A DNA stretch of 64,000 nt from a plasmid. The stretch lies in sequence record NZ_CP103541.1; one strand, written 5' to 3'. A program made the translations under genes and the position numbers. This document shows positions 1-33,657 of this stretch, piece by piece. Positions within the stretch are counted from its first letter, which is position 1, and each line of letters opens with the position of its first letter. The notes below the pieces were generated by a model. The model ran no database searches, was not told the origin of the DNA, and saw only the letters and a list, made by a program, of their open reading frames with translations.

Positions 1-756
<756 letters not shown>

Positions 757-1334: not shown

Positions 1335-1343
1335 ATGTTCAGA

Positions 1344-2510
1344 ATGAAACTCATGGAAACACTTAACCAGTGCATAAACGCTGGTCATGAAATGACGAAG
1401 GCTATCGCCATTGCACAGTTTAATGATGACAGCCCGGAAGCGAGGAAAATAACCCGGCGCTGGAGAATAGGTGAAGCAGCGGATTTAGTTGGGGTTTCTT
1501 CTCAGGCTATCAGAGATGCCGAGAAAGCAGGGCGACTACCGCACCCGGATATGGAAATTCGAGGACGGGTTGAGCAACGTGTTGGTTATACAATTGAACA
1601 AATTAATCATATGCGTGATGTGTTTGGTACGCGATTGCGACGTGCTGAAGACGTATTTCCACCGGTGATCGGGGTTGCTGCCCATAAAGGTGGCGTTTAC
1701 AAAACCTCAGTTTCTGTTCATCTTGCTCAGGATCTGGCTCTGAAGGGGCTACGTGTTTTGCTCGTGGAAGGTAACGACCCCCAGGGAACAGCCTCAATGT
1801 ATCACGGATGGGTACCAGATCTTCATATTCATGCAGAAGACACTCTCCTGCCTTTCTATCTTGGGGAAAAGGACGATGTCACTTATGCAATAAAGCCCAC
1901 TTGCTGGCCTGGGCTTGACATTATTCCTTCCTGTCTGGCTCTGCACCGTATTGAAACTGAGTTAATGGGCAAATTTGATGAAGGTAAACTGCCCACCGAT
2001 CCACACCTGATGCTCCGACTGGCCATTGAAACTGTTGCTCATGACTATGATGTCATAGTTATTGACAGCGCGCCTAACCTGGGTATCGGCACGATTAATG
2101 TCGTATGTGCTGCTGATGTGCTGATTGTTCCCACGCCTGCTGAGTTGTTTGACTACACCTCCGCACTGCAGTTTTTCGATATGCTTCGTGATCTGCTCAA
2201 GAACGTTGATCTTAAAGGGTTCGAGCCTGATGTACGTATTTTGCTTACCAAATACAGCAATAGTAATGGCTCTCAGTCCCCGTGGATGGAGGAGCAAATT
2301 CGGGATGCCTGGGGAAGCATGGTTCTAAAAAATGTTGTACGTGAAACGGATGAAGTTGGTAAAGGTCAGATCCGGATGAGAACTGTTTTTGAACAGGCCA
2401 TTGATCAACGCTCTTCAACTGGTGCCTGGAGAAATGCTCTTTCTATTTGGGAACCTGTCTGCAATGAAATTTTCGATCGTCTGATTAAACCACGCTGGGA
2501 GATTAGATAA
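1344..2510 (+). CDS. sopA: SopA partition ATPase (ParA family)
   Basis: [35 protein letters not shown] matches F SopA. Deviant Walker A motif KGGVYKTS. The ORF track shows an upstream extension from 1335. Confidence 0.9.
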
Positions 2511-3481
2511 TGAAGCGTGCGCCTGTTATTCCAAAACATACGCTCAATACTCAACCGGTTGGAGATACTTCGTTATCGACACCAGCTGCCCCGATGGTGG
2601 ATTCGTTAATTGCGCGCGTAGGAGTAATGGCTCGCGGTAATGCCATTACTTTGCCTGTATGTGGTCGGGATGTGAAGTTTACTCTTGAAGTGCTCCGGGG
2701 TGATAGTGTTGAGAAGACCTCTCGGGTATGGTCAGGTAATGAACGTGACCAGGAGCTGCTTACTGAGGACTCACTGGATGATCTCATCCCTTCTTTTCTA
2801 CTGACTGGTCAACAGACACCGGCGTTCGGTCGAAGAGTATCTGGTGTCATAGAAATTGCCGATGGGAGTCGCCGTCGTAAAGCTGCTGCACTTACCGAAA
2901 GTGATTATCGTGTTCTGGTTGGCGAGCTGGATGATGAGCAGATGGCTGCATTATCCAGATTGGGTAACGATTATCGCCCAACAAGTGCTTATGAACGTGG
3001 TCAGCGTTATGCAAGCCGATTGCAGAATGAATTTGCTGGAAATATTTCTGCGCTGGCTGATGCGGAAAATATTTCACGTAAGATTATTACCCGCTGTATC
3101 AACACAGCCAAATTGCCTAAATCAGTTGTTGCTCTTTTTTCTCACCCCGGTGAACTATCTGCCCGGTCAGGTGATGCACTTCAAAAAGCCTTTACAGATA
3201 AAGAGGAATTACTTAAGCAGCAGGCATCTAACCTTCATGAGCAGAAAAAAGCTGGGGTGATATTTGAAGCTGAAGAAGTTATCACTCTTTTAACTTCTGT
3301 GCTTAAAACGTCATCTGCATCAAGAACTAGTTTAAGCTCACGACATCAGTTTGCTCCTGGAGCGACAGTATTGTATAAGGGCGATAAAATGGTGCTTAAC
3401 CTGGACAGGTCTCGTGTTCCAACTGAGTGTATAGAGAAAATTGAGGCCATTCTTAAGGAACTTGAAAAGCCAGCACCCTGA
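2510..3481 (+). CDS. sopB: SopB centromere-binding protein (ParB family)
   Basis: 323-aa ORF overlapping the sopA stop. Its position and length match F SopB, and a ParB-type HTH is visible. Confidence 0.9.
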
Positions 3482-3559
3482 TGCGACCACGTTTTAGTCT
3501 ACGTTTATCTGTCTTTACTTAATGTCCTTTGTTACAGGCCAGAAAGCATAACTGGCCTG

Positions 3560-3965
3560 AATATTCTCTCTGGGCCCACTGTTCCACTTGTATCGTCGGT
3601 CTGATAATCAGACTGGGACCACGGTCCCACTCGTATCGTCGGTCTGATTATTAGTCTGGGACCACGGTCCCACTCGTATCGTCGGTCTGATTATTAGTCT
3701 GGGACCATGGTCCCACTCGTATCGTCGGTCTGATTATTAGTCTGGGACCATGGTCCCACTCGTATCGTCGGTCTGATTATTAGTCTGGGACCACGGTCCC
3801 ACTCGTATCGTCGGTCTGATTATTAGTCTGGGACCACGGTCCCACTCGTATCGTCGGTCTGATTATTAGTCTGGGACCACGATCCCACTCGTGTTGTCGG
3901 TCTGATTATCGGTCTGGGACCACGGTCCCACTTGTATTGTCGATCAGACTATCAGCGTGAGACTA
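3560..3965. repeat. sopC: sopC centromere: about 9 tandem 43-bp repeats, each with the inverted repeat tgggaccacggtccca
   Basis: Period-43 tandem repeat ctgggaccacggtcccactcgtatcgtcggtctgattattagt, seen directly. The last two copies are degenerate. Confidence 0.85.
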
Positions 3966-4323
3966 CGATTCCATCAATGCCTGTCAAGGGCAAGTATTGA
4001 CATGTCGTCGTAACCTGTAGAACGGAGTAACCTCGGTGTGCGGTTGTATGCCTGCTGTGGATTGCTGCTGTGTCCTGCTTATCCACAACATTTTGCGCAC
4101 GGTTATGTGGACAAAATACCTGGTTACCCAGGCCGTGCCGGCACGTTAACCGGGCTGCATCCGATGCAAGTGTGTCGCTGTCGCCGGCCTCCTCACCCGG
4201 TCACGTTTCGTCGTTCCTCCTCCACGCGCTGCGGCTTCGGGGCCGCACCTGCATTCGTATGCGGTCGCCCGGTTACAGGTGCGGCACGGCCTGATGGAGG
4301 CCGCATGTGAGAGGAGAATTCCC

Positions 4324-5250
4324 ATGCCAAACTGGTGTTCGAATCGTATGTATTTTTCTGGTGAACCGGCACAGATCGCTGAGATTAAACGACTGGCCAG
4401 CGGCGCAGTCACACCGTTTTATCGCCGCGCCACAAATGAAGGTATTCAGCTGTTTCTGGTCGGAAGTGCCGGACTTCTGCAGACCACTGAAGATGTGCAG
4501 TTTGAACCGTGCCCCGGACTGACGGCTGCCGGACGTGGTGTTGTATCGCCGGAGAATATCGCGTTCACCCGCTGGCTGACACACCTGCAGAACGGTGTGC
4601 TACTGGATGAACAAAACTGCCTGATGCTGCATGAACTCTGGCTGCAGAGCGGTACTGGACAGCGTCGCTGGGAAGGATTACCGGACGATGTCAGGGATAC
4701 CATCACCGCACTTTTCACCGCAAAAAGAGGTGACTGGTGTGGCTTCTGGAGTAACGAGGATGTATCGGTGTGGTGGAACCGTCTGTGTGACAACGTACTG
4801 CCGGAAAAAACCATGCCGTTTGACCTGCTGACGGTTCTGCCCACCCGCCTGGATGTTGAAGTGAATGGCTTTAACGGTGGTGTTCTGAACGGTGTTCCTT
4901 CTGCATATCACTGGTATACGGAACAGTATGGCGTGAAGTGGCCTGTGGGGTATGAGGTGAATATCAGTAGTCAGGGAGACAACTTCATTCAGGTTGATTT
5001 CGACACGCCGTGGTGTCAGCCGGAAAGCGACGTTATTGCAGAATTAAGCCGCCGTTTCAGCTGCACGCTGGAGCACTGGTATGCCGAACAGGGCTGTGAT
5101 TTCTGTGGCTGGCAGTTGTATGAGCGCGGAGAGCTCGTTGATGTGCTGTGGGGGGAACTGGAATGGTCTTCCCCGACAGATGACGATGAGCTGCCGGAAG
5201 TCACCGGACCTGCGTGGATAGTCGACAATGTGGCGCATTATGGCGGATGA
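4324..5250 (+). CDS. hypothetical conserved plasmid protein (308 aa, Cys/Trp-rich)
   Basis: Long ORF. ATG at 4324 is preceded by gagaggag; the GTG start in the track at 4279 is less likely. A terminator follows. Confidence 0.5.
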   Translation: MPNWCSNRMYFSGEPAQIAEIKRLASGAVTPFYRRATNEGIQLFLVGSAGLLQTTEDVQFEPCPGLTAAGRGVVSPENIAFTRWLTHLQNGVLLDEQNCLMLHELWLQSGTGQRRWEGLPDDVRDTITALFTAKRGDWCGFWSNEDVSVWWNRLCDNVLPEKTMPFDLLTVLPTRLDVEVNGFNGGVLNGVPSAYHWYTEQYGVKWPVGYEVNISSQGDNFIQVDFDTPWCQPESDVIAELSRRFSCTLEHWYAEQGCDFCGWQLYERGELVDVLWGELEWSSPTDDDELPEVTGPAWIVDNVAHYGG

Positions 5251-5264
5251 AGTATGACGGAGAC

Positions 5265-5290
5265 GGGCGGGAAACCGCCCGTTTCTTTTC
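5265..5290 (+). terminator. rho-independent terminator (gggcgggaaaccgcccgtttctttt)
   Basis: Perfect GC hairpin gggcgg-gaaa-ccgccc followed by a T-run, 15 bp after the stop of the 4324-5250 ORF. Confidence 0.5.
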
Positions 5291-5633
5291 CGACAAAGGA
5301 TGTCGCCGTGCTCCTCTTTTTACTGCGCCGGCTGACGCGGCGCGGCATAAACGCTGCCTGTGGTCAGTGTCCCGCGTCCGGCGGGCACGGGACGGGCGCT
5401 TTTACCGCTCCCGGCTGGCGTCGGTGACAGTGTACGCCAGCCCGTCGCCCTTTTCTGATGAACGCCCTTCAAGCAGCTTTCGCGGCATAACCTTGCCGTC
5501 AGAAAGACGACGGCTGCGGTATTCCACGGTCGGCCTGACCCGTTACCGGACGCGGTGAACAGCCCACAGGCAGCGGGGAACGGGCACCACAGGGGTGCCC
5601 TCCCGGTGCCCTCTGTAAGAGAAGGAGTTTCGT

Positions 5634-6317
5634 ATGTCCCGTTTTGTCCTCGGTAACTGCATCGATGTTATGGCCCGTATTCCTGATAACGCCATTGATT
5701 TCATCCTCACCGACCCGCCATATCTCGTCGGTTTCCGTGACCGTTCCGGGCGCACCATCGCCGGCGATAAAACCGATGAGTGGCTGCAACCGGCCTGTAA
5801 TGAAATGTTCCGCGTGCTGAAAAAAGACGCGTTAATGGTGAGCTTCTACGGTTGGAACCGCGTCGATCGCTTTATGGCCGCCTGGAAAAATGCGGGATTC
5901 AGCGTTGTTGGTCATCTGGTCTTCACCAAAAACTACACATCGAAGGCCGCATATGTGGGCTATCGCCACGAATGCGCCTACATCCTGGCAAAAGGCCGTC
6001 CACGTCTGCCACAAAACCCGCTGCCGGACGTGCTGGGCTGGAAATATTCGGGCAATCGCCATCACCCGACGGAAAAGCCCGTTACCAGCCTGCAACCGCT
6101 GATTGAGAGCTTCACACACCCGAACGCAATTGTGCTGGACCCGTTTGCAGGCAGCGGCTCAACCTGCGTCGCCGCCCTCCAGTCCGGACGCCGGTATATC
6201 GGTATCGAGCTGCTTGAGCAGTATCACCGTGCCGGGCAGCAACGCCTTGCCGCCGTGCAACGGGCCATGCAGCAGGGGGCCGCGAATGATGACTGGTTTA
6301 TGCCGGAGGCTGCGTAA
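5634..6317 (+). CDS. orphan DNA methyltransferase (N6-adenine/N4-cytosine, DPPY motif)
   Basis: Motif FILTDPPYL with a downstream SAM-binding segment LDPFAGSGST (beta-class order). No adjacent restriction endonuclease. Typical of leading-region anti-restriction methylases. Confidence 0.75.
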   Translation: MSRFVLGNCIDVMARIPDNAIDFILTDPPYLVGFRDRSGRTIAGDKTDEWLQPACNEMFRVLKKDALMVSFYGWNRVDRFMAAWKNAGFSVVGHLVFTKNYTSKAAYVGYRHECAYILAKGRPRLPQNPLPDVLGWKYSGNRHHPTEKPVTSLQPLIESFTHPNAIVLDPFAGSGSTCVAALQSGRRYIGIELLEQYHRAGQQRLAAVQRAMQQGAANDDWFMPEAA

Positions 6318-7814: not shown

Positions 7815-8230
7815 TGACACTGGCGGGGTAAATCCCCGCCTTTTTCCTGCCGGTCCCCGGACAGGCACAAAGGAAGTCGCCGCCGGCTCCGCTTTACCCG
7901 GCCATGCAGGGCATGGCCTTGTGGTTTTTCAGTTATGTGGCCTCAGCGTCGTGTGCTGGCTGTGCCGTGCCTCCATCTTAGCCGGGCTGGCGTTGATGCA
8001 AGGGTACGCTTCGCCGCTGCGGTCACCCGGTCCCTCCTTCCCGTCTGCCGTGATTTTCCGGTCGTTCACCCGCTCAGGTTTCGCGGTCTCACCCTCCAAC
8101 TCCCGCCAGCCGTGTGCGTCAGGCTGCGGCTTCCCTTGCGCCCTGTGCATCCCCGCCTTATCGCCCGGCTTTTATGGAGGCACGGCACCGCCCGGTGTCG
8201 CGGAATATGTGAACAACGGAGGAAAACATC

Positions 8231-8656
8231 ATGCAATATGCGAAACCTGTCACTCTGAACGTTGAAGAGTGCGACCGTCTGTCTTTTCTGCCTTACCTGT
8301 TTGGCCAGGATTTTCTGTATGCCGAAGCGTCTGTATACGCGCTGGCGAAACAAATGATGCCGGAATATGAAGGCGGATTCTGGCACTTCATCCGCCTGCC
8401 GGACGGTGGCGGTTACATGATGCCGGATGGCGACCGTTTCCACATGGTGAACGGTGCAAACTGGTTTGACCGTACCGTGAGTGCTGATGCCGCAGGTGTC
8501 ATTCTGACTTCTCTTGTGATTAACCGCCAGTTGTGGCTGTACCACGACAGCGGGGATGCAGGACTGACCCAGCTTTACCGGATGCGCGATGCGCAGTTGT
8601 GGCGTCACATCGAATTTCACCCCGAATGCAACGCGATTTACGCGGCTCTGGACTGA
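8231..8656 (+). CDS. klcA: KlcA/ArdB-family antirestriction protein
   Basis: 141-aa protein [37 protein letters not shown], which I recognise as the KlcA/ArdB family. RBS ggagga present. Confidence 0.75.
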
Positions 8657-9117: not shown

Positions 9118-9308
9118 TGAATATCAGCACGGAAACCCGCGAAATTCTGCGCAATTACAAAGCCGTGATTAATGCGCGGCGTCGTGAAATGGGGCAGAAA
9201 CCGCTCACCACTGCGCAGATTGTTGATGAAATCTGCGATTTTGTGGCGAATCAGCAGGCGGTTTTCCTCGGTGGTCACTATATCCTTCAGGGCAGCAGAA
9301 ACAGGTGA
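9117..9308 (+). CDS. hypothetical small protein (63 aa)
   Basis: ORF whose start overlaps the stop of the preceding gene. No homology recognised. Confidence 0.3.
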   Translation: MNISTETREILRNYKAVINARRREMGQKPLTTAQIVDEICDFVANQQAVFLGGHYILQGSRNR

Positions 9309-9502
9309 TACAGGGCAGGCGGTGGAGGCCGCCTGTCAGCCCGCGCGAAAACCCTGGCAGGCTGACGCCTGCCGGAAGGGAAGCGGGCCACGCTGGCGCG
9401 TCGCCCGTTACCCTTCCCGTTTGTGATGTGTCCGGAATGTTTTTTTCTGATGGTATGACCCTGTTCCTGTTGTTGTTGTTGTTCTTTTCTCTGCTGCCCT
9501 GA

Positions 9503-10090
9503 TTCTGACTACTGCAGTGTTGTCCTGTCTGCCTGCGCACCTTCGGCTCCCGGCTGCCTGGCGGCATCCGGTCGTCAGGCCCGACTCCGACAGGCAGCTG
9601 CTGGCGCACCCGCCAGTCTCCGCCGAACCCGCTGGCGCGGTTTCGGGCTGTCGCTACGGTCCGATGCGTGAACCCCGGGCTTGCAGCGACCGAACGGTCG
9701 CGCCGCCTCTGTCGCGCCGTGGCCTGCGCTCCCGGCATCCCGGCAAAAGGCCGCCGGGATGTAAGGCGCAACGCCGTTTCGCGCACGCGCTCTCCGTCGT
9801 TGCGGCGGGTCCCTGCTCATTGCCTGCCGGGTGCCACACACCCGTATGAGTCCCTGTCGCCGGGGGCTGATACAGCCACAACCTGCCGCACTGACTGTCC
9901 AGGGTAAATGAACAGCCCACAAAATTTTTTACCCAAAACCCGGTAAAAAATTTTGCGTTCTGCCCCGGACAGGTGCGTCAGGCCGTGGCAGTGATGCCCC
10001 TTGCGGCGAAGGTTCTCAAACGGGTGAAGTTCATACCACAGGGAATACAGCAGCAGGTTCCCGCGAAACGTCAAAACCGCGGCTCCCGAA
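9503..10090 (+). promoter_or_regulatory. Frpo/ssi-like GC-rich repeat copy A (putative single-strand promoter for leading-region genes)
   Basis: About 570 bp, over 90% identical to 16535-17100 and to 33185-33616. Ends ...gttcccgcgaaacgtcaaaaccgcggctcccgaaactcaa. Sits upstream of + strand leading genes. Confidence 0.6.
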
Positions 10091-10336
10091 ACTCAACGGG
10101 TGATGTTCTTTAAAAATCAGGATTTATTTCAGGCTCCGGCAATACGCATTTATTTGTTCTGTCAGTCATCCGGCTGGCAGGTAATGAGAACGCAGGAACA
10201 GAAGGAGGAAAACACCGGAAAGCGTCAGATGCAGATATGAAAAAAGCAGGTCAGGGACCTGCTTAATCCACGCCGTAGAAATCGCCGCAATCGATTTTCA
10301 CGGCTTCACTAACCTGTGTCATAAGGAGTTTCATTT

Positions 10337-10567
10337 ATGACAGTAAGTATTGTTTCACCTTCCGCAGCGGCTGTAAAGCCCCGCCGTCATCCCCGTTTCA
10401 GACGCGAAGACATCCCCGCGCCGGAAATTGACCCCGTGCTGAAAGCCTTCGGGCGACACATAGCCCGGAGTTTTCACCGGGGGCGTGGTGTACACATCCC
10501 CGCCATGAAAAACACGGCCTTCGGGCAGGTGCTCCGCACACTCGAACTGAAACGCGCTTTTAACTGA
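10337..10567 (+). CDS. hypothetical basic small protein (76 aa), first gene after Frpo copy A
   Basis: Good RBS aaggag 7 nt before the ATG. Arg-rich. Confidence 0.45.
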   Translation: MTVSIVSPSAAAVKPRRHPRFRREDIPAPEIDPVLKAFGRHIARSFHRGRGVHIPAMKNTAFGQVLRTLELKRAFN

Positions 10568-10618: not shown

Positions 10619-11980
10619 ATGACATTAGCAGCAATCACCATGACCGCCCCGGAAGCCGCCAGCCCTGTGCAGATATACCGCGCGACCTACTCACCGGATG
10701 ACAACAAACTGCGCCTGTATGCCGCGTCACGTCTTGACCCGGAGACGTATAAAAAAGTGCATGATGCCGGTTTTCGCTGGGCACCAAAACAGGCGCTGTT
10801 TGTCGCGCCAGCCTGGACACCGGGCCGGGAAGACGTGCTCCTCTCACTTGCCGGAGAGATTGAGGATGAAGACAGCACGCTCGCTGAACGTCAGGAAGCA
10901 CGGGCGGAGCGGTTTACCGGATACAGCGGAAAGCAGGCCAGTGAATCCGCACAGGCACTTGATGAAGTGGAAAGACTGGCCGCGATGATCCCGCCCGGTC
11001 AGCCCATTCTTGTGGGGCATCACAGCGAACGCCGCGCCCGTCGTGATGCGCAGCGTATTGAAAACGGCATGAAACGTGCCGTGATGCTCTTTGAACGTGC
11101 GGAATACTGGGAAGAGCGGGCGCGGTCGGCACGGCTTCACGCGAAGTATAAAGAACGTCCGGATGTTCGCTGGCGTCGTATCAAAAAAATCGAAGCTGAT
11201 TTGCGCAAGGCTGAAAAGACCATCGCGCAGTCGCAGAAATATCTGACGATGTGGCAGGCTGAATCGCTGGATCTGAATATGGCAAAACTCATCAGCAGTC
11301 ATGACCATATCAGCGCCTGTTTCCCGCTGGATAAGTACCCGCGTCCGGCAGAAAAAAGCCAGTATGAAGGAAGTCGATCGTTATGGTCGGCCCTGGATGA
11401 TGACATCATCACCACGGAGCAGGCCCGCGAAATTGCGATCCGTTGTCATGAACGGCAGATTCAGCATCAGCAACGCTGGGTTAACCACTATCAGAACCGC
11501 CTGATCTATGAGCGTGCCATGCTGGACGAAAGCGGCGGCGTGGTTACCCGGACGCAGGATTTTGAGCCGGGCGGGCAGATTTGCAGCCGGGGCGAGTGGC
11601 TGACCATCATTCGCGTGAACAAAAGCAACGGGGCGGTGAGTTCAGTCACAACGCCAAATTACAGTTTCCTCGGGTACAGCGGCACGATGAAAGTGACGCC
11701 CGATCGCATCACGGACTACAAAGCGCCATCGGCAGAAGAGGCCGTTGTCGCCAGACAGGCCGCGAAGCGCCCGCCTGTTGTCAATTATCCGGGAGAAGGT
11801 TTCCGGGAAATGACAAAGGCACAGTGGGCCGCCCTGCCCCGGGACTGTAAGGCCGTGCGCAGTGTGGCAGAGACAGAAGAGCACGGAGCATATCGTTACC
11901 GCCGCACAATGGACAACAATTTCCGTCTGGTGAATGTGTATATCACCGACATGAAAATCACGGAAATCCCGCAAAAATAA
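10619..11980 (+). CDS. hypothetical leading-region protein (453 aa)
   Basis: RBS ggaggagaac before the ATG. Long ORF with normal codon usage. No catalytic motif recognised. Confidence 0.6.
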   Translation: MTLAAITMTAPEAASPVQIYRATYSPDDNKLRLYAASRLDPETYKKVHDAGFRWAPKQALFVAPAWTPGREDVLLSLAGEIEDEDSTLAERQEARAERFTGYSGKQASESAQALDEVERLAAMIPPGQPILVGHHSERRARRDAQRIENGMKRAVMLFERAEYWEERARSARLHAKYKERPDVRWRRIKKIEADLRKAEKTIAQSQKYLTMWQAESLDLNMAKLISSHDHISACFPLDKYPRPAEKSQYEGSRSLWSALDDDIITTEQAREIAIRCHERQIQHQQRWVNHYQNRLIYERAMLDESGGVVTRTQDFEPGGQICSRGEWLTIIRVNKSNGAVSSVTTPNYSFLGYSGTMKVTPDRITDYKAPSAEEAVVARQAAKRPPVVNYPGEGFREMTKAQWAALPRDCKAVRSVAETEEHGAYRYRRTMDNNFRLVNVYITDMKITEIPQK

Positions 11981-12027: not shown

Positions 12028-12591
12028 ATGCACAGTCAGTTAAGGGAGCGTATCCGGCTGATGCGCGCAAGGCTGGACAATGCCAGGCCGGTTATCGAGA
12101 TTCCGGCAGAATTTCAGCTTTTTGTGACACCTGCCCCGGTCTGCGATCGCCTGGTGACGCTGGCGGAAATCAGCAACCGTGATCACATTCTGGAACCCTC
12201 TGCCGGCACCGGAGCCATACTGCGGGCGATTCGGGATACCGCGCCGGGAGCCATGTGTGATGCGGTGGAGATTAACAGCGGACTGGTCCGGTATCTGCGG
12301 GAAAATTTTAACGGTGTCAGGGTGCAGCATGGTGACTTCATGGAATGGCAGCCGACGCAGTATTACAGCCGTATTATTATGAATTCGCCGTTCAGCAACG
12401 GGCAGGATATCCGGCATATCCTGCGGGCCTTTTCCCTGTTGCGTCCGGGGGGCGTGCTGGTCGCTGTCTGTCTGAACGGGCCACGCCAGCAGGAGAAGCT
12501 GTTACCGTTTTCTGACGTCCGCGAGGAACTGCCGCGCGGCACGTTTGCTTATACCCGTGTTCCGACGATGATTATTCGTCTGCGGGCCTGA
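12028..12591 (+). CDS. small SAM-dependent methyltransferase (187 aa), putative orphan DNA methyltransferase
   Basis: SAM-binding motif ILEPSAGTGAIL and motif-IV-like IMNSPF. No cognate endonuclease nearby. Confidence 0.6.
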   Translation: MHSQLRERIRLMRARLDNARPVIEIPAEFQLFVTPAPVCDRLVTLAEISNRDHILEPSAGTGAILRAIRDTAPGAMCDAVEINSGLVRYLRENFNGVRVQHGDFMEWQPTQYYSRIIMNSPFSNGQDIRHILRAFSLLRPGGVLVAVCLNGPRQQEKLLPFSDVREELPRGTFAYTRVPTMIIRLRA

Positions 12592-12770
12592 AGACGCCGG
12601 GCAGGCGGGAGGATAAATGCCCGTCTGCCCGCGCCGGGAAAAGACCGCGCGCCGGTGGCGCTGAAAGGGGCCGCGCTCACGCGCCGCCCCTTTCATTACG
12701 CGGACGTTCTGATGGGGGCTTCTGTTTCTTCATGCCTGTCATTTGTCTGTTACTGATGATGTTGTTGTTC

Positions 12771-12833
12771 CTGCTACTGCTACTGCTACTGCTACTGCTA
12801 CTGCTACTGCTACTGCTACTGTTCTTCTTTTTC
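12771..12833. repeat. hexanucleotide microsatellite (CTGCTA)x10
   Basis: Seen directly. Sits in a pyrimidine-rich tract that also precedes the other Frpo copies (9440-9500, 33030-33090). Confidence 0.9.
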
Positions 12834-12959
12834 CTGCTGCTCTGATTCTGACTACTGCAGTGTTGTCCTGTCTGCCGGGTCGGGTAGCAGCGGCACATTG
12901 CTGCGCCGCCGCCCCCTAAGAACGGAGCGTGCGAGTTTCCCCGCACTCCGCTCAAGCCT

Positions 12960-13746
12960 TTATAAGTGCTTTCGGTGAGCACCGGCTTCCCTGCTGTGTA
13001 ACTGTCGGTGGCAGTTCGGATGTAACAACTCGAGATTGGTCAGTTCGTCACTGCCGCCCATAACTTTCCTGATCCGGTGATGTATATTCCATCCGGTCTG
13101 GTTGGTTATGGGTTGTCCGCACTGCGGACAGTGTTTCCCCTGCCTCTTCCAGAGTTGAACTACTGTCTTCATCTTCTTTGATTTGCCTTTCCAGATTAGA
13201 TCCAGACGACGTTCAAAGTAGATTTCCATTCCGGGGGTGTATGGTGTTGCTTCGCCTTTGATTTTTATATGGCGCTTTATCGGTGTTTCCATTGCCCGGA
13301 AGAGAGTCAGAATTTTCCCTTCCGGGGTTATGGCTTTAAAGATCCAGCGCCTGCCTTCAAAGGAGAAGTATCGTCCGGCGATCCACCGCAATCCTTTTCG
13401 GGGGTGCCTTCTTACACACCATCGCCATATAGCTCGCCAGATTTGGGTGTCGACATAATTAAATGTTTCTTTCGCCACGACGTGTCGGTGATAGGTAGCC
13501 CATCCCCGGATTACCGGGTTTAGCTGGCCTATCAGTTTCCATGCCGGGAGCGTCGGATTGCGTTTAATTATTTCTCTGACTTTACAGAGGAAGTTCTTCA
13601 GGTTTTTCTTCGACGGTTTAATCAGCATTTTACCGTTGTACTTCCTGACGTTCTGCCCTAAAAAGTCGAAGCCTTTATCTATATGTGTAATCGCGGTTTT
13701 TTCTTCCGACAGTTCCAGCCCTCGTTCGCGCATGAAAGCTGCAATC
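12960..13746 (-). pseudogene. group II intron RT/maturase, C-terminal part (X/maturase and HNH domains: HPNCHRQLH)
   Basis: ORF 12960..13931 on the minus strand. True continuity is broken at the IS629 boundary 13746/13747. Confidence 0.7.
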
Positions 13747-13788
13747 TGAACCGCCCCGGGTTTCCTGGAGAGTGTTTTATCTGTGAAC

Positions 13789-14679
13789 TCAGGCTGCCAG
13801 ATCATCGTTTCCGATGGAAGCATAATAAGCTTTTTCTGCTTCTGCCGGAGGAGTATGGCCCAGCCTTTCCAGCAATCGTCGATTGTTATACCAGTCCACC
13901 CACGTGAGTGTGGCCAGTTCCACTTCTGCACGGTTTTTCCAGCTCTTACGGTGTATTACCTCCGCTTTGTAAAGACCATTGATGCTCTCCGCCATCGCGT
14001 TGTCATACGAGTCGCCTGTACTTCCTGTTGATGCCAGTAATCCGGCTTCCTTAAGCCGCTGTGTGTAGGCCAGCGATACATACTGAGAACCTTTATCACT
14101 GTGATGGACCGTGCCGGACGGTCGACGGGCCCATAACGCCTGCTCCAGTGCATCCAGCACGAATGTCGTTTCCATGGACGATGAGACCCGCCACCCCACG
14201 ATGTATCCGGCAAACACATCAATGATGAACGCCACATAGACGAAGCCCCGCCATGTGCTGACGTAAGTAAAATCAGCCACCCACAGCTGGTCAGGTCGTT
14301 CTGCCACGAACTGACGGTTTACGCGGTCGCCTGCGGCAACGGCTTTCCGGCTGATGGTCGTACGGACCTTTTTACCCCGGAGAACACCGGCAAGTCCCAT
14401 AACCGCCATGAGACGTGCCACAGTGCATCTGGCCACTCTGATACCTTCCCGTAACAACTGACGCCAGACTTTACGCACACCGTATACCTTGTGATTTTCA
14501 TCGTATACGCGCTGTATCTCTTTCTTCAGCCAGTCATCGCGCTGCGCACGGGCACTGCGTTTATCCGGATGATGTCGCTGTTGCTGACAGTGGTAATACG
14601 TTGACGGGGCAATATGCAGTTCGCTGCATAGCGGTCCGACCCCGTACTGCTCACGCAGCTTATCCAGCAGTGGCATCAT
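13789..14679 (-). CDS. IS629 OrfB (DDE transposase)
   Basis: 296-aa DDE-domain ORF overlapping orfA by 4 nt (the -1 frameshift arrangement of the IS3 family). Confidence 0.8.
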
Positions 14680-15002
14680 TTTTTCCAGAGGCGGTCGAAC
14701 TCCGCCTTCGCAAAATAAGCGGAAGCCTGGCGAAGGATATCGTTACTGCGGCGCAGTTCACGATTTTCACGTTCCAGCTCTTTCAGACGCTGACGTTCAG
14801 CGGTGGTGAGCCCTCCATCACCGCCCCCGGTATCCCGCTCATGCTGGCGAACCCAGACACGCAGAGTCTCCGGCGTACAGCCAATCTTTGGAGCAATGGA
14901 ACAAATTGTCGCCCATTGTGAGTCATATTCGCTCTGACTTTCCAGAACCATACGGACTGCCCGTTGACGGACTTCGGGGGAAAAACGAGTATTTTTAGTC
15001 AT
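14676..15002 (-). CDS. IS629 OrfA (transposase N-terminal, HTH)
   Basis: 108-aa ORF of IS3-family orfA type. Confidence 0.8.
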
Positions 15003-15056
15003 CCTGTTTACCTCTTTCTCAGGAAGTTTAGTCTCCAGGATTCCCGGGGCGGTTCA

Positions 15057-15940
15057 ATCAGTGGTCTGACCTCATTTTCCAGCAATTCACGGGAGCTGCC
15101 TGAACAGATGAAATCATCAGCATATCTCACATAATTCACCTGGTGCTTTGCACTGTGATAACCACTTTTCCTGAACGTTTGCATCAGTTCCTTCTCCAGT
15201 CCGTCCAGAGCCATGTTGGCGAGAACAGGGGATATGATGCCTCCCTGCGGTGTCCCGCTGTTCGTATGGTTAAACACGCCTCTTTCCATGTAACCTGCTT
15301 TCAACCATTTTTTAAGCAGTCTCCTGTCCATCGGAATATGGGAAAGCAGCCAGTCATGGCTGATGTTATCGAAACACCCTTTAATATCGCCCTCCAGTAT
15401 CCATTTGGGCGATACTTTCTGGCTCATCCGCAGAAAAATGGACTCAATGGCGTCATGCGTGCTGCGCATTGGTCTGAAACCATAGCTGTTATGGTCAGCA
15501 GTGGTCTCGGATACGGGTTCCAGAGCCAGCAGCCACAGTGCCTGCATGGCCCGGTCCCTCATTGTGGGTATGCCCAGCGGTCGCGTTTTGCCGTTTGATT
15601 TTGGGATATGTATTCGCCGTAGTGGCTGTGGCCTGTAACCACACAGATTCAGGCTGCATATTCCTTCCCATTTCTCCTTCGGTGTGTGCCATATTTTTCC
15701 GTCAATACCGGGTGTCCTTTTACCGGTATTTTCAGTTACACGCCTGACAGCCACGGCTTTGCCGGAGAATGAGCGGGTGAGGATGCGCTGTAGTTCTCTG
15801 ACCTGCCGCCATTGTTGCTGTCGGGTTGCCTTTGCAATCCGTAACTGTAGCTTTCGCACCCGGGCATGGCATGCTTTCCAGTCTATGGTGTGCCAGCCTG
15901 TCGGGTGGGGTATCGTGGACACACTGATGTGTGTATTCAT
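15057..15940 (-). pseudogene. group II intron reverse transcriptase, N-terminal part (RT domains 0-7, YADD motif)
   Basis: ORF 15008..15940 (minus) with RPLGIPTMRDRAMQ and VRYADDFI motifs, interrupted by IS629. Confidence 0.75.
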
Positions 15941-16534
15941 CTCGCTGATATCCTTTTGACTGCTTTACAGCTTTTCATGCAATTAAAGACCAGACGGAAG
16001 TCTGCCCGCTTTCGCGTCGGGGAACCTGCCCCGTATCCCGGTCATTACAACCGGGCATTTGCTTTTTCCGTCCTCCTCTGCCCGCACCGCCTACAGTGTT
16101 CCTTACGGTTCACCTGCCTGTAAGGCAGCGATACGGGTTTACCAGGTTCCGCTTAACATACAGAGGGTCAGGGCGGGTTCTGTCTCTTCACCGGGGGTCT
16201 CTGCGCCCATGTGCTCCCTGTGCGCGAGGTAGCAACCGGACCCCGTACCTTTTGGTTCAGGCCTGTCAGCATCTTTGGCCTGTTGCCGATAACGGTGTTT
16301 ATCAACAGTTCACATGTGTTAACCCTTCTGACCAGCCTTGCTCTCCTGCCACATGATGCTTGCAGCAAGGTAAAGCCCCTCACGGGGCTTTACCCGGGCT
16401 GACGCCCGGCTCTCGTTGTCCCGGGAGCTTCAGACCCCGCCGTTGCCGGCAGCGCCTGTCCCGGTAGGCTACAGCTAATGGGATAGCTGGTTTTATCAAT
16501 GTAAAACAATACGTTAAGCGACTTCCTGTCGCAC

Positions 16535-17100
16535 GCGCACCTTCGGCTCCCGGCTGCCTGGCGGCATCCGGTCGTCAGGCCCGACTCCGACAGGCAGCTG
16601 CTGGCGCACCTGCCAGTCTCCGCCGAACCCGCTGGCGCGGTTTCGGGCTGTCGCTACGGTCCGATGCGTGAAAACCCCGGGCTTGCAGCGACCGAACGGT
16701 CGCGCCGCCTCTGTCGCGCCGTGGCCTGCGCTCCTGGCATCCCGGCAAAAGGCCGCCGGGATGTGAGGGGCAACGCCGTTTCGCGCACGCGCTCTTCGTC
16801 GTTGCGGCGGGTGCCTGCCCGTTGTTGTGTCCGGTGCCATACACCTGTTTAAGCCCCTGTCGCCGGGGGCTGATACAGCCACAACCTGCCGCACTGACTG
16901 TCCAGGGTAAATGAACAGCCCACAAAATTTTTTACCCAAAACCCGGTAAAAAATTTTGCGTTCTGCCCAGGACAGGTGCGTCAGGCCGTGGCAGTGATGC
17001 CCCTTGCGGCGAGGGTTCTCAAACAGGTGATGGTGAATACCAGAGGGAACAAAAGGCAGGTCCCCGCAAAACGTCAAAACTGCGGCTCCCGAAACTCAAC
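16535..17100 (+). promoter_or_regulatory. Frpo/ssi-like repeat copy B, with the intron inserted at its left edge
   Basis: Near-identical to 9527-10090. Confidence 0.6.
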
Positions 17101-17601
17101 AGCTACCGTGTTCTGTCAAGAAAAAATCGCTTAAATTCAGTCGTACAGCCCTTAAGTACTGCCAGCAGGCTTGTCAGTACCAAGTTTCCGATACTGCGCG
17201 GCTACGCTAACGGGGTTAAAAGGGCTTACTTATACTACATCATCGCTGAAAGCTTGTATGGTTTCGCGGAACAGGGAGTAACAGGAGAATATTCACTCTC
17301 TACCGGCTAACAGTTAGCTTAATTGCAGTAACTGGTAACCAACTGCTAGAAAAATTCACCATGAATAATAATTGTGCTGATTACCTGCAATTATTGTAGT
17401 GAAATTTCTGTTCATATTTTTTCGCTAGCGATGTCTTGTTTGAGAAAAAACACTATTTGTTGAATAGTTTGATTCTGGTATTTGGAGTCTTTTAAAGGGG
17501 GATTCTATATGGATATCACTTTTTATATGTTGTAAATAATGCCGCTGTAGAAGAACAACGGCAAATGAAGGGGGGTATTGTTACAATAATCTTATTTGTC
17601 T

Positions 17602-18144
17602 CTATTTTTTATCCGAATCAGGTAGCAATTTAAAAGCTTTCAATATGGGGTAAAGTGTTTCATTCTCAAAGTTTTTTGCTAAATCAGTGAGGTGTTTTTT
17701 GATGTCATTGCTGGTAATGAGCTCAATTATGTGAGGAGTCCATTTGATATTATTGTCAATCAACACTTCAGAGTCCCAACTAGATGGTTTATAAAAAGCC
17801 ATGCAAGATAAAATAACTAGTCTCGTCTTCGATAAGAATGGTAATATATATAGTTTGGTACTGTTTATGTTAGGGTGTTTTGATTTTGCCTGCACAGTAA
17901 TTAAGTTATATGAGCAAGTTAGTAATGACTCAATACTAACAGGCGATAAGTAATATTCTGTAACCCACTTGTAATTGTCATCATCATCATAATCAATCCA
18001 CGTATTTATCCTGGCTAAAGTTGTTGCTAGGCCTCTGTTTTTTAGTTTCTTTACAGTCCTTTCCTTTTTCTCAGATTTGGCTTTTACGAATAAATCATCA
18101 TTATTTTTATCAACCCACTCAGCCAGGAGAGGCAATTTAGGAAC
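17602..18144 (-). pseudogene. AT-rich orphan ORF fragment, 5'-truncated by IS2
   Basis: 189-aa track ORF whose first codons lie inside the IS2 terminal repeat. GC is visibly low (about 30%). No homology recognised. Confidence 0.35.
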
Positions 18145-18155
18145 TGGATTTGCCC

Positions 18156-19061
18156 CTATATTTCCAGACACCTGTTATCACTTAACCCATTACTGGCCTG
18201 CTGCCGCAGATATTCCCGTGGCGAGCGATAACCCAGTGCACTATGCGGATGCCATTCGTTATAATGCTCGAACGCCTCTGCAAGGTTCTTTGCTGCCGTT
18301 AACCCGTCTGGTTTGGGCATGATACTGATGTAGTCACGCTTTATCGTTTTCACGAAGCTCTCTGCTATTCCGTTACTCTCCGGACTCCGCACCGCCGTGT
18401 TCTTCGGTTCAAGTCCCAACATCCGGGCGAACTGGCGTGTTTCATTAGCCCGGTAGCATGAACCATTATCCGTCAGCCACTCCACTGGAGACGACGGAAG
18501 ATCGTTGCCGAAGCGGCGTTCCACCGCTCCCAGCATGACGTCCTGTACTGTTTCACTGTTGAAGCCGCCGGTAGTGACCGCCCAGTGCAGTGCCTCACGA
18601 TCACAGCAGTCCAGCGCGAACGTGACACGCAGTCTCTCTCCGTTATCACAGCAGAACTCGAACCCGTCAGAGCACCATCGCTGATTGCTTTCTTTCACGG
18701 CCACTCTGCCTGTATGTGCCCGTTTCGATGGCGGTACAGCAGGTTTTCGCTCAAGCAACAGCGCATTCTGGCGCATGATCCGGTAAACACGTTTGGCATT
18801 GATCGCAGGCATACCATCAAGTTCTGCCTGTCTGCGAAGCAGCGCCCATACCCGACGATAACCATACGTGGGCAGCTCTCCGATAACATGGTGTATACGG
18901 AGAAGCACATCCGTATCATCAGTGTGACGACTGCGGCGGCCATCCATCCAGTCATCGGTTCGTCTGAGAATGACGTACAACTGCGCACGCAACACCCGGA
19001 GACAACGGCTGACTAAGCTTACTCCCCATCCCCGGGCAATAAGGGCGCGTGCGCTATCCAC
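18156..19061 (-). CDS. insD: IS2 InsD transposase (DDE)
   Basis: 301-aa [26 protein letters not shown], recognised as IS2 InsD. Confidence 0.85.
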
Positions 19062-19384
19062 TTTTTTGCACGCCCGTATTCAACGGCTTCTTTAAGGAGT
19101 TCATTTTCCATCGTTTTTTTGCCGAGCAGGCGCTGGAGTTCTTTAATCTGCTTCATGGCAGCAGCAAGTTCAGAGGCAGGAACGACCTGCTCTCCTGCGG
19201 CCACAGCAGTAAGACTTCCCTCCTGGTATTGCTTGCGCCAGAGAAATAACTGGCTGGCTGCCACACCGTGTTGCCGGGCAACAAGGGAGACCGTCATTCC
19301 CGGTTCAAAACTCTGCTGAACAATTGCGATCTTTTCCTGTGTAGTACGCCGTCTGCGTTTCTCCGGTCCTAAGACATCAATCAT
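19019..19384 (-). CDS. insC: IS2 InsC
   Basis: 121-aa [28 protein letters not shown], recognised as IS2 InsC. Confidence 0.85.
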
Positions 19385-19475
19385 CTGCTCTCCAATGACT
19401 AGTCTAAAAACTAGTATTAAGACTATCACTTATTTAAGTGATATTGGTTGTCTGGAGATTCAGGGGGCCAGTCTA

Positions 19476-20233
19476 TCCTCCCGCTGGAAATGCTGGAAAT
19501 TCTGCGCCGCATAGAAAAACGTGGCTCGCTGGAAAAACTGCGTAAGGTCCGCCAATACTGTAATCAGATTTTTCGTTATGCTATCGCCACCGGACGAGCC
19601 ACTGTCAATCCGGCATCTGAACTGACCAGTACGCTGGCGGCACCAAAAGCTGCGCATTTCCCCCACCTGAGAGCAGATGAGCTCCCTGTTTTTCTCCGGA
19701 AGCTCGCTGAATATCATGGCAGTCCTGTTACCCGCATGGCGACAAATCTTCTGCTTCTGACGGGTCTCAGAACCATTGAGCTACGGTCCGCTGAATGGTC
19801 AGAAATTGATTTTGATAATGCCCTGTGGACAATCCCTGAAAGCCGCATGAAAATGCGACGTAAACATGTCGTACCACTGTCACGACAGGCCACTGACATT
19901 CTGCTGCAGCTCAAAACTTTCTCCGAGCAATACCGACTGGTTTTTCCGGGACGTTGTGATATCAACAAGCCAATGAGCGAAGCCAGCATCAATATGGTGC
20001 TCAAACGTATCGGTTACGATGGCAGGGCAACCGGTCATGGTTTTCGTCACACCATGAGTACCATTCTGCACGAACAGGGCTTTAATTCTGCCTGGATTGA
20101 AATGCAGTTAGCTCATGTGGATAAAAATTCCATCAGGGGTACCTATAATCATGCCCTGTATCTCGATGGTCGCCGTGAAATGATGCAATGGTACGCTGAC
20201 TACATTGATTCACTTTCCAGCCAGGAGAGTTAA
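19476..20233 (+). pseudogene. int: P4-type tyrosine integrase, 5'-truncated by IS2 (C-terminal catalytic domain only)
   Basis: Begins exactly at the IS2 end. Motifs HGFRHT and LAH..Y fit a tyrosine recombinase C-terminus. Confidence 0.7.
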
Positions 20234-20317
20234 TTACACTTTGTCCTGAAATTATTCTCACAATCAATAACCTTTCCCTCTGATCTTACAGATCAGAGGG
20301 ATTCCGTTAACTTACAA

Positions 20318-20358
20318 TAAGTGATATTGGTTGTCTGGAGATTCAGGGGGCCAGTCTA
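20318..20358 (+). repeat. solo 41-bp copy of the IS2 left terminal repeat
   Basis: taagtgatattggttgtctggagattcagggggccagtcta is identical to 19435-19475. Confidence 0.6.
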
Positions 20359-20390
20359 ACGGTCTACTATAATAATTAGCAGGAGATAAT

Positions 20391-21401
20391 ATGTCACTTA
20401 AGGCGATTGCCACTGCACTCGGAGTTTCTGTCACCACTGTCAGTCGGGCTCTTGGAGGCTATGCAGATGTGTCAGCTTCCACCCGTGCACGGGTGGAAGC
20501 TGAAGCTCGTCGACGCGGCTACCGTCCTAATACTCAGGCAAGAAGACTCAAAACCGGTAAAACCGATGCTGTCGGTCTGGTTTATCCTGGACGTGATGTG
20601 CCATTTAACAGTGGTGTTTTTATGGATATGGTCAGTTGCATCAGCCGGGAACTTGCTCACCATGATATTGACTTACTACTGATAGCTGATGATGAGCATG
20701 CCGATTGCCACAGCTATATGCGGCTTGTTGAAAGTCGCAGGGTTGATGCTCTCATCATTGCACACACTCTGGATGACGATCCCCGTATCACACACCTTCA
20801 TAAAGCAGGTATTCCATTTCTGGCTCTTGGTCGGGTACCATCTGGTCTGCCCTGTGCGTGGTTTGACTTTGATAATCATGCCGGGACTGGACAGGCAACC
20901 CAGAAACTGATTGCTTTGGGACATAAACGTATTGCATTGTTGAGTGAAGACACTTCACATACCTATGTTATTGCAAGACGTCAGGGATGGCTTGATGCAC
21001 TGAATGAGCATGAACTGGAAGATACATGGCTGCGGCTGGTTTCTCCCACACGGCGAGCAGGATATCAGGCCGTGATGGAGTTAATGTCACTACCGATACC
21101 ACCAACAGCTATTATTACTGACAATGATCTGAGTGGAGATGGTGCTGCCATGGCGCTGCAGTTGAGCGGTCGTCTTTCAGGAAAAGCTGCGGTATCTCTG
21201 GTTGTATATGATGGTTTGCCACAGGACAGTATTATTGAGCTGGATGTAGCTGCAGTTATTCAGTCAACACGAAGCCTCGTTGGTCGCCAGATTTCCGAGA
21301 TGATATATCAGATAATTACTGATTCATCATCAAAACCACTACAGGTTGTCTGGAACCCGGTATTTTATCCGGGAAAGACGATTCATTCTCCTTGCTCCTG
21401 A
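20391..21401 (+). CDS. rafR: RafR raffinose operon repressor (LacI family)
   Basis: 336-aa LacI-family protein with N-terminal HTH MSLKAIATALGVSVTTVSRAL. Followed by rafA, rafB and rafD as in the pRSD2 raf operon. Confidence 0.75.
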   Translation: MSLKAIATALGVSVTTVSRALGGYADVSASTRARVEAEARRRGYRPNTQARRLKTGKTDAVGLVYPGRDVPFNSGVFMDMVSCISRELAHHDIDLLLIADDEHADCHSYMRLVESRRVDALIIAHTLDDDPRITHLHKAGIPFLALGRVPSGLPCAWFDFDNHAGTGQATQKLIALGHKRIALLSEDTSHTYVIARRQGWLDALNEHELEDTWLRLVSPTRRAGYQAVMELMSLPIPPTAIITDNDLSGDGAAMALQLSGRLSGKAAVSLVVYDGLPQDSIIELDVAAVIQSTRSLVGRQISEMIYQIITDSSSKPLQVVWNPVFYPGKTIHSPCS

Positions 21402-21496
21402 TTTTTTTATCCAGCTCACATATCCGAAACGTTTTGGTTGATACCCGAAACGTTTCGGATCAACAGTAAGGCATCCCTGAGAAAGGAGAATGTCTT

Positions 21497-23623: not shown

Positions 23624-23685
23624 AGAGAGGTACGGAGCCTCAGCTCCGTCCTGTTTCTCAATATTATCCCGTGAGGGTAAGAATA

Positions 23686-26393: not shown

Positions 26394-26587
26394 GATATAT
26401 CGATATCAGTATTTTTTTTGATATTATCTGTCATTACTTTGCCAGTACACATTAATTATCTTTGCTGTGTGCTTTTGGTAATGTGTTGCGATTATATATA
26501 CCAGTCTGGTGAAGAGTATGAATGGTATTTTGTGTTGATACAGAGAATATAAGAGTACCCACATTTGTTTTTATTTAAGGGGGTAAA

Positions 26588-27982: not shown

Positions 27983-28388
27983 TGCATAGTAACAAAGTAT
28001 TGTTCCACACTTACATTAACGCGTTTTTCGGGTACACCATCGGTGAGCATACGAATAATCGCTGTCTGTCGATGGTTGATTTAATTTATTGCGCAACGAG
28101 CCAGCTACCGGGAACTGGCTCTGAAGTTGCGTCAGGTCACGAAGTACTGCCCGGGGAATAATGCCAGACTAACTCTGACCAGTGCCACTTGACGTCTCCG
28201 CCAGCGCAGCGGAGGCAAATAGTACTGTCAGACCGTGGGCTTATCCCCGCGCGGAGCGGTACAATGACGGTGATAACCGTCAACCATACTGCGAAATATT
28301 TGCCCCGGCGTGTCACCCAGAGTGCACAGATAGGGTGATGCTGCCAACTTACTGATTTAGTGTATGATGGTGTTTTTGAGGTGCTCCA

Positions 28389-28664
28389 GTGGCTTCTGTT
28401 TCTATCAGCTGTCCCTCCTGTTCAGCTACTGACGGGGTGGTGCGTAACGGCAAAAGCACCGCCGGACATCAGCGCTATCTCTGCTCTCACTGCCGTAAAA
28501 CATGGCAACTGCAGTTCACTTACACCGCTTCTCAACCCGGTACGCACCAGAAAATCATTGATATGGCCATGAATGGCGTTGGATGCCGGGCAACTGCCCG
28601 CATTATGGGCGTTGGCCTCAACACGATTTTACGTCACTTAAAAAACTCAGGCCGCAGTCGGTAA
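28389..28664 (+). CDS. insA: IS1 InsA
   Basis: [32 protein letters not shown], recognised as IS1 InsA. Confidence 0.85.
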
Positions 28665-29082: not shown

Positions 29083-29097
29083 GTTGGAGTCATTACC

Positions 29098-29721: not shown

Positions 29722-29817
29722 CTCTTTGTACCAGCTACCAGTCGGCTGTACTACGGGTTCCTGAGTCCGGCAAAACGGCATCGTGTATCGTTCCGGTCGA
29801 GTAGGCAGCCTAACCCG

Positions 29818-30714: not shown

Positions 30715-30735
30715 GAAAGGAGATCAGTGAAGGTA

Positions 30736-31017: not shown

Positions 31018-31131
31018 AGGTGGTTTGTTACCGTGTTGTGTGGCAGAAGGACAAAAGCCCCGTAGTTAATTTTTCATTAACCCATGTACTGCACCCATTT
31101 TGTTGGACGATGAAATGGAATAGCCCCTAAT

Positions 31132-33616: not shown

Positions 33617-33657
33617 AAGATGATGGGGGCTGAAAACCAGAGAGAGGAGAAAGCAGG

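Follow-up and report, generated by a model that had tools for sequence, protein, structure and literature searches.

The leading region and its transferred strand

We analyzed a 64,000-nt stretch of the plasmid record NZ_CP103541.1 (the window), and in particular a family of GC-rich repeats, the first of which starts near position 9503, dispersed through the leading region of the plasmid. Based on the open reading frame (ORF) map and on the annotation of an essentially identical RefSeq plasmid, the window is from an IncF Escherichia coli plasmid of the IncFIA/FIB/FII type, with replication and partition genes at its left end, followed by the leading-region genes, the origin of transfer, and the tra genes. 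The exact nic sequence of the F plasmid (GTGGGGTGTGGTGCTTTT) was found with zero mismatches on the minus strand, which identifies the minus strand as the transferred (T) strand. Relative to nic, tra genes lie to the right and leading genes to the left, both on the plus strand, and all plus-strand genes left of oriT are templated by the T strand. The nick falls at ~35781, entry proceeds from there towards lower coordinates, and the three repeat copies lie ~2.2, 18.7, and 25.7 kb from the nick on the entering side.

Three direct repeats

Repeat finding, alignment, and BLAST established long direct repeats at ~9503–10105 (copy 1), 16535–17108 (copy 2), and 33188–33625 (copy 3), all in one orientation and, as an earlier note on this DNA had stated, GC-rich (0.60–0.64 vs 0.51 for the whole window). 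That note counted four near-identical repeats of about 570 bp, with mutual identities of >90% for the intact copies. The repeats were confirmed, but as three copies, and identity above 90% holds only for copies 1 and 2 (93.3% over 579 nt). Over the 435-nt core common to all copies, identity is 89.9% between copies 1 and 2, 81.1% between copies 1 and 3, and 86.9% between copies 2 and 3. What had been counted as a fourth, interrupted copy at 12876 is in fact the left end of copy 2, split off from the remainder by a group II intron: positions 12820–12876 are a 93% BLAST match to 9477–9533, the left end of copy 1, and the fragment ending at 12876–12878 does not represent a separate copy. At the other end, homology of copy 2 to the other copies stops near 17100, where cargo DNA begins.

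Folding of the transferred strand

For each copy, 451–453 nt of the minus strand around the hairpin were folded as single-stranded DNA (ssDNA) and compared with 100 shuffles. Minimum free energies were −129.3, −124.2, and −138.6 kcal/mol for copies 1, 2, and 3, with z-scores of −7.96, −7.95, and −9.17, and none of the 100 shuffles was as stable. The dominant structure was in each case one imperfect hairpin of 296–319 nt and 110–119 bp with an A/T-rich apex, i.e., the stable T-strand fold that the earlier note had proposed to look for is present in every copy. In all three copies, the T strand is 8–12 kcal/mol more stable than its complement, because G·T pairs turn into C·A mismatches on the latter.

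We next projected the copy 1 structure onto eight F-type homologues (the three copies of the window, two from F, one from Serratia, and two from an insect metagenome). Overall, 83% of cells were paired, compared to 38–48% when partners were slid, and 15 pairs were changed on both sides in a compensatory manner, vs 4–9 for slid structures. The basal stem exists in two sequence versions, a copy 1 type and a copy 3 type, with matching arms in each. An RNAalifold consensus fold of a 10-sequence MAFFT alignment including ColIb was dropped, as misalignment degraded it.

Relation to known single-strand promoters

Copy 3 is 97.7% identical over 437 nt to the segment of the F plasmid (NC_002483) ahead of ygeA/ygeB, i.e., Frpo1, and on the minus strand it agrees with ssiD as published (D90178). 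To the F segment ahead of ssb (Frpo2), identity is 91.7% for copy 1 and 92.4% for copy 2. Homology, position, orientation to nic, and T-strand hairpin all fit the Frpo/ssi identity suggested in the earlier note, and the three repeats are very probably class-1 ssDNA promoters (Frpo/ssi, ssp1) of the IncF leading region. The present analysis provides the homology to F Frpo, the T-strand assignment, the hairpin, its strand asymmetry and covariation, and the absence of a duplex-form promoter.

This repeat family is already known and ordinary. Catalogues of Frpo-like repeats ahead of leading-region operons cover thousands of plasmids (PMC11541004, PMC9849209, PMC12672017). Samuel et al. 2024 counted 13,089 Frpo homologues across 6,006 conjugative elements (PMC11541004), and Wen et al. 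2025 assigned these elements to class 1 of the ssDNA promoters, with start sites in pESBL obtained by 5′ RACE (PMC12672017). For F and pESBL, rifampicin-sensitive transcription was observed from ssDNA and none from double-stranded DNA, along with zygotic induction of the downstream genes (PMC9849209, PMC12672017).

F Frpo1 (the Frpo of Masai & Arai 1997, ssiD, or ssp1a) occupies the same site as copy 3, between the hok/flm and ygeA/ygeB homologues, with the same orientation to nic and the same ~320-nt hairpin, and shows point differences only. Unlike in the F Frpo1 region, IS150 is inserted upstream of copy 3 in hok/sok: the element (~31132–32501) separates the Rfam sok match (30986–31161) from the hok toxin ORF (~32634–32759), and the hok/sok (flm) locus is thus split. 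F Frpo2 (ssp1b) lies ahead of ssb-yfjA-yfjB-psiB-psiA. Copy 1 shares its upstream neighbor, the 63-aa WP_001027495 gene, and copy 2 retains the right-hand part that adjoins ssb in F, such that where F has one copy this plasmid has two, placed around a module of a 76-aa ORF, a DUF3560 gene, and a methyltransferase gene. Copy 3 is the counterpart of Frpo1 and, by analogy with F, would drive ygeA/ygeB. Copy 2 is the counterpart of the ssb-linked Frpo2, orphaned here, and copy 1 heads the 76-aa/DUF3560/methyltransferase operon that F lacks.

Beyond F, the IncI1 class-1 elements ssi1–ssi3 of ColIb-P9/pESBL are likewise three dispersed direct repeats ahead of leading-region operons, with the same hairpin architecture, an A/T-rich apex, and conserved CTGTCCGGGG, CCCTGGAC, and GCCCCCGG motifs. 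They differ in a hairpin that, in the alignment, is clearly more diverged from the F-type copies, in another basal stem, and in a MOBP relaxase. The class-2 (ssp2) and class-3 (ssp3) promoters of F/pESBL follow the same logic, with a T-strand hairpin ahead of klcA/ardB and of an M.EcoGIX-like methylase, without overall sequence homology to the three repeats. Two further structured regions on the minus strand of the window correspond by position to ssp2 and ssp3: ~7900–8235 (ΔG −102.6 kcal/mol, z −4.1), ahead of a klcA/ArdB-like antirestriction gene (8231), and 5250–5640 (ΔG −114.6 kcal/mol, z −8.9), ahead of an N6/N4 DNA methylase gene (5634). Finally, the sso elements of rolling-circle plasmids resemble the repeats in being folded ssDNA used by host RNA polymerase to make primer RNA (PMC7690428), but they serve replication only, are not placed for downstream expression, and have no sequence relationship to the repeats.

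Operons behind the copies

At least 3958 plasmids carry the module behind copy 1, which F lacks; the DUF3560 protein of the module fell into no NCBIfam family and had no relative by sequence in the Protein Data Bank (PDB). An Rfam match to AS-pc01 ("antisense to pHK01_035", 105 bits) at 10241–10342 on the minus strand overlaps the ribosome-binding site and start codon of the 76-aa ORF. Since the template of AS-pc01 is the plus strand, this RNA would be made only after complementary-strand synthesis, which would fit a shut-off of the 76-aa ORF after an early burst. Copy 3 is followed by genes for a YgeA-like and a YgeB-like protein; of the F genes, ygeA and ygeB are those for which early expression is most important to transfer (PMC9849209).

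Behind copy 2, ssb-psiB-psiA has been replaced by an IS2/raffinose cargo island, in which the raffinose operon comprises a LacI-type regulator, an alpha-galactosidase, an MFS transporter, a GH32 invertase, and a porin. The junction at ~17100 is lineage-restricted (137 plasmids), and no plus-strand ORF of ≥70 aa occurs for ~1 kb after copy 2, with only three ORFs of 29–52 aa overlapping 17000–17650. Because the cargo replaced ssb, psiB, and most of psiA, the plasmid is without the SOS-inhibition genes typical of Frpo-bearing plasmids. At the site of the minus-strand 189-aa ORF of the island, a related plasmid carries the annotation "caspase family protein".

The earlier note held that each copy is followed by plus-strand genes templated by the T strand and that these genes are the best candidates for early-entry functions. 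This stands for copies 1 and 3, for which the DUF3560 protein, the small methyltransferase, YgeA, and the DUF932 protein are reasonable and already recognized early-entry targets, but not for copy 2, which was orphaned by the cargo and has no operon.

RefSeq/PGAP coding sequences (CDS) and pseudogenes are called over the Frpo hairpins and their flanks (16911–17134, 33427–33633, and 9293–9492), as a "single-stranded DNA-binding protein, frameshifted", a 68-aa hypothetical protein, and frameshifted hypothetical proteins. These calls look like artefacts of a non-coding structured element.

Candidate promoter boxes

The duplex resembling −35 and −10 boxes that the earlier note anticipated within the hairpin is not found as a strict consensus; the hairpins hold only weak candidates for such boxes on the 3′ arm, in the loop-to-base direction (Table 1). 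P1 adjoins the A/T-rich apex, which could serve as its UP element, and its spacer holds an 8-nt bulge. P2, which lies nearer the base and occurs in each of the three copies, contains a bulged C within its −10 and a 2×2 mismatch just downstream. The duplex-form counterparts on the right arm are worse (TTGCGT-N9-GACAGG for P1 and CCGTGG-N19-GAAGGT for P2), in the case of P2 because the −35 TT pairs via conserved G·T wobbles, and no duplex-form sigma-70 site was found on the plus strand ahead of the downstream genes. Such poorer duplex-form boxes would explain a promoter that works only when folded.

Two observations support transcription from loop to base. The functional Frpo2-acrIIA4 cassette of Samuel et al. 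(PMC11541004) begins 3 nt past GACAGG and ends at the ssb start codon, and these boundaries fit this direction; the klcA class-2 hairpin has the same geometry, with a near-consensus TTGCAT-15-TAAGAT on its 3′ arm and a mismatched −10. A TTGAGA-17-CATCAC pair on the 5′ arm, which would transcribe towards the loop, is disfavored because the functional Frpo2 cassette is without the partner of that −35, and a TTGACG at the hairpin base has no usable −10.

Several results nevertheless weigh against the repeats being working promoters. No hexamer pair with ≥9/12 matches was found in a sigma-70 consensus scan of both strands of the three copies; P1 matches the consensus at 3/6 + 3/6 and P2 at 3/6 + 2/6 positions, which is weak; and in a position weight matrix (PWM) scan of 11 family members, the P1 and P2 candidates were not conserved in ColIb-P9, nor was any hexamer pair conserved across F-type and ColIb-type copies. 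Moreover, as there is no plausible early gene behind copy 2, at least one copy does not currently serve expression. Promoter activity, the exact boxes, and the start site are deduced from published work on F and ColIb-P9/pESBL.

Table 1 Features of the window, by position.
Feature	Position	Strand	Remarks
repE	1–756		ORF map/annotation
sopAB	1335–3481		ORF map/annotation
Leading-region genes	between sopC and oriT	+	
Pyrimidine tract of copy 1	9438–9518	+	includes (TGT)5 at 9468–9483
GC-rich left domain (type A) of copy 1	9519–9670		repeat comparison
Copy 1 core	9671–10105	−	functional strand minus (T); F Frpo2 homology
Copy 1 hairpin	9786–10081	−	296 nt, 110 bp, apical loop GGGTTTTG
P2 candidate, copy 1	9881–9876 and 9858–9853	−	TTGTGG, 17 nt, GACAGG; inferred
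P1 candidate, copy 1	9922–9917 and 9899–9894	−	TTGTGG, 17 nt, GACAGT; inferred
76-aa ORF	10337–10567	+	operon of copy 1
DUF3560 protein	10619–11980	+	453 aa; operon of copy 1
Class I S-adenosylmethionine (SAM) methyltransferase	12028–12591	+	187 aa; operon of copy 1
Pyrimidine tract and left end of copy 2	12735–12878	+	(CTGCTA)8.5 at 12771–12821
Group II intron in left domain of copy 2	12879–16534	−	3,656 bp; Rfam; not part of the repeat
IS3-family element nested in intron	~13789–15002		annotation
Copy 2 remainder	16535–17108	−	left domain 16535–16672, core 16673–17108
Copy 2 hairpin	16779–17094	−	316 nt, 119 bp
P2 candidate, copy 2	16884–16879 and 16861–16856	−	
Cargo island	17101–30800		minus-strand 189-aa ORF, IS2, integrase fragment, raffinose operon, IS1, ion-channel gene
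psiA remnant	~30815–30923		
Pyrimidine tract of copy 3	32951–33118	+	≤80% pyrimidines, no microsatellite
Copy 3 core	33188–33625	−	F Frpo1/ssiD homology
Copy 3 hairpin	33294–33612	−	319 nt, 119 bp
P2 candidate, copy 3	33401–33396 and 33378–33373	−	
YgeA-like ORF	33658–33945	+	95 aa; behind copy 3
YgeB-like DUF932 protein	34064–34885	+	behind copy 3
SLT transglycosylase	35181–35783	−	
F-type oriT nic	35773–35790	−	GTGGGGTGT/GGTGCTTTT; sequence match
traM, traJ, tra operon	from 36123	+	

Alternative explanations

A possible but less favored explanation, which overlaps with that of a promoter, is that the repeats are mainly ssi signals providing primer RNA for the complementary strand, with expression as a secondary effect. 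Members of the family were originally identified as ssi sequences, RNA made at Frpo serves as a primer for DNA synthesis in vitro (reviewed in PMC7690428), in vivo data suggest that ssp1/Frpo transcription contributes to conversion (bioRxiv 10.64898/2026.01.09.698686), and the orphan copy 2 keeps an intact −91 kcal/mol hairpin despite the loss of its operon. However, deletion of Frpo1 or Frpo2 in F abolishes the early expression of the genes downstream (PMC9849209), every intact copy lies directly ahead of a co-oriented operon, and priming at these sites would copy DNA only towards the nick, all of which weigh against this reading.

The copies could also be recombination scars or module boundaries that shuffle leading-region cassettes, without a promoter role for copies 1 and 2, which we consider improbable. 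The copies are indeed mosaic: at informative sites, copy 2 combines a copy 1-type apex with a copy 3-type basal stem on both arms, and F Frpo2 has a copy 1-type left half and a copy 2/3-type right half. As these halves differ in type, so do the basal arms of F Frpo2, and its hairpin has the lowest stability in the set (−84.7 vs −88 to −94 kcal/mol). This is the pattern that would be expected of a crossover between copy 1 and copy 2 that deleted the 76-aa/DUF3560/methyltransferase module. Similarly, a 9.7-kb module has been gained or lost between Frpo repeats of IncI plasmids (PMC3817090), and the homology between ColIb-P9 and IncF breaks within the repeat, the left domain of copies 1 and 2 being near-identical in ColIb-P9 and the hairpin diverged. 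Repeats are, however, expected to recombine whatever their function, and pairing survives the mosaic, as the two arms of copy 2 switch together. Along with the energetically favored T strand, this preserved pairing suggests selection on the structure, beyond mere homology.

At a broader scale, across 5426 complete E. coli genomes, the copy 1 hairpin was detected in 3367, at a median of three per genome, and the three-copy layout is the common one. Within these genomes, the hairpin was found at 9153 places on plasmids vs 103 on chromosomes. A mobile palindromic element (MITE/ERIC-like) or a repeated coding fragment is therefore very unlikely, even though the repeat is a long imperfect palindrome in several copies over which PGAP calls hypothetical or frameshifted CDS and even an "ssb pseudogene": of the 9256 places, 9153 are plasmid-borne, and these invariably fall in the leading region with a single orientation relative to oriT, the ends of the three copies showed neither terminal inverted repeats nor target duplications in the sequences inspected, ORFs across the repeat occur on both strands of a GC-rich sequence and are annotated as frameshifted, and no Rfam family matched the repeat at gathering or permissive thresholds.

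Chromosomal CRISPR spacers of Klebsiella pneumoniae fall within the Frpo repeat (16790–16825 and the equivalent positions of copies 1 and 3; PMC6965323). In that study, the spacer GAGCAGGCACCCGCCGCAACGACGAAGAGCGC is listed as "intergenic, 2-4 hits per plasmid, 524 plasmids", and another is filed under "DUF3560". By eye, GAGCAGGCACCCGCCGCAACGACGAAGAGCGC equals the Serratia Frpo of Samuel et al. (supplementary table 2) and is one base off copy 2.

Flanking tracts and left domains

A T-rich, A-poor tract lies ahead of each copy, with 70–73% pyrimidines, i.e., within the top 0.35% of 60-nt windows. The earlier note described a pyrimidine-rich microsatellite before each copy; the tract is found at all three, but a microsatellite only at copies 1 and 2, as (TGT)5 and (CTGCTA)8.5. 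The latter array slips, as it is two units longer in NZ_CP021204. In F, the tract before Frpo2 (F 9981–10107) is CTT/CCT-rich and reaches 98% pyrimidine per 60 nt, far more extreme than in the window, and the tracts vary in sequence, both between copies and between plasmids, but keep their composition. As a universal feature, the tract was rejected: it is weaker in ColIb-P9 (≤0.70 pyrimidines), and is thus an IncF trait at best.

Between tract and core, the type A left domain is 99% identical between copies 1 and 2 and also occurs ahead of the ssb-linked ssi of ColIb-P9, whereas copy 3 and F Frpo2 bear a different, type B domain in its place. We rejected the left domain as a structured element, since its z-score is only −2.25 and its low folding energy is due to GC content. 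Just left of the tracts, a ~100-nt GC-rich element (GCAGGCGG...GCCCGCGC...) occurs at 9315–9420 and 12600–12700 with ~60% identity, the second occurrence folding at −81 kcal/mol within 300 nt. At low identity, the repeat unit may hence reach further left, or this element could represent a structure at the end of an operon.

Both in the window and in F, all copies follow a pyrimidine tract prone to slippage, (TGT)n/(CTGCTA)n/(CTT)n-like and purine-rich on the T strand, and we found no role described for the IncF tract and GC-rich domain in the literature examined. It is conceivable, albeit doubtful, that the functional unit in IncF plasmids exceeds the published ~328-nt Frpo and takes in the tract and the ~150-nt GC-rich domain. 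If so, the flanks could insulate early operons from one another in a Rho-dependent manner, or could form a T-strand element by which complementary-strand synthesis, and hence the length of the early-expression window, is modulated. Alternatively, they could merely mark crossover zones at which IncF and IncI plasmids exchange early-gene cassettes.

Group II intron and partition site

The element that splits copy 2 gave Rfam group II intron matches on the minus strand, to the 3′ domains at 12879–12955 and the 5′ domains at 16341–16490, and it runs from GTGCG at 16534 to AC at 12879. NZ_CP021204, whose flanks are 100% identical, is without the intron, and its uninterrupted junction reads CTGTCTGCCGGGCGCACC. 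The intron reverse transcriptase is interrupted by the nested IS3-family element, which carries an ALIL frameshift pseudoknot (14605–14721). The intron occupies the non-coding left flank of copy 2 in the T-strand sense, and its insertion in a strand that becomes single-stranded upon transfer would be compatible with retrohoming to ssDNA. Elsewhere in the window, an ordinary sopC centromere (F-type partition) follows sopB at 3483–4016, with 43-bp direct repeats that appear as nine overlapping 190-nt copies spaced by 43 bp.

Proposed mechanism and significance

Based on these features, and by analogy with F and pESBL, we propose that during conjugation the minus strand would enter the recipient with its 5′ end leading, starting at the nick near 35781, and that each copy, while single-stranded, would fold into its ~300-nt imperfect hairpin and so offer a duplex promoter to host RNA polymerase. 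The 3′ arm (left in window coordinates) would act as the non-template and the 5′ arm as the template, and transcription would run from the loop side off the hairpin base into the plus-strand genes at the right, with the same RNA possibly priming complementary-strand synthesis. Once the complement is made, the hairpin would be lost, and the duplex, without a usable promoter, would no longer sustain expression.

An early-expression role is established for F, ColIb-P9, and pESBL, and such elements are catalogued across thousands of plasmids. To these, the window adds a tidy three-copy IncF layout, an orphaned copy whose ssb-psiB operon gave way to a raffinose cargo island, and sequence evidence consistent with F Frpo2 being a recombinant of two such copies. 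Overall, these hairpins govern which of the plasmid's genes are expressed during the first seconds to minutes following entry, including anti-restriction, SOS inhibition, methylase, and uncharacterized genes, and because they determine what is expressed first in a new host, they are relevant to the spread of resistance plasmids.

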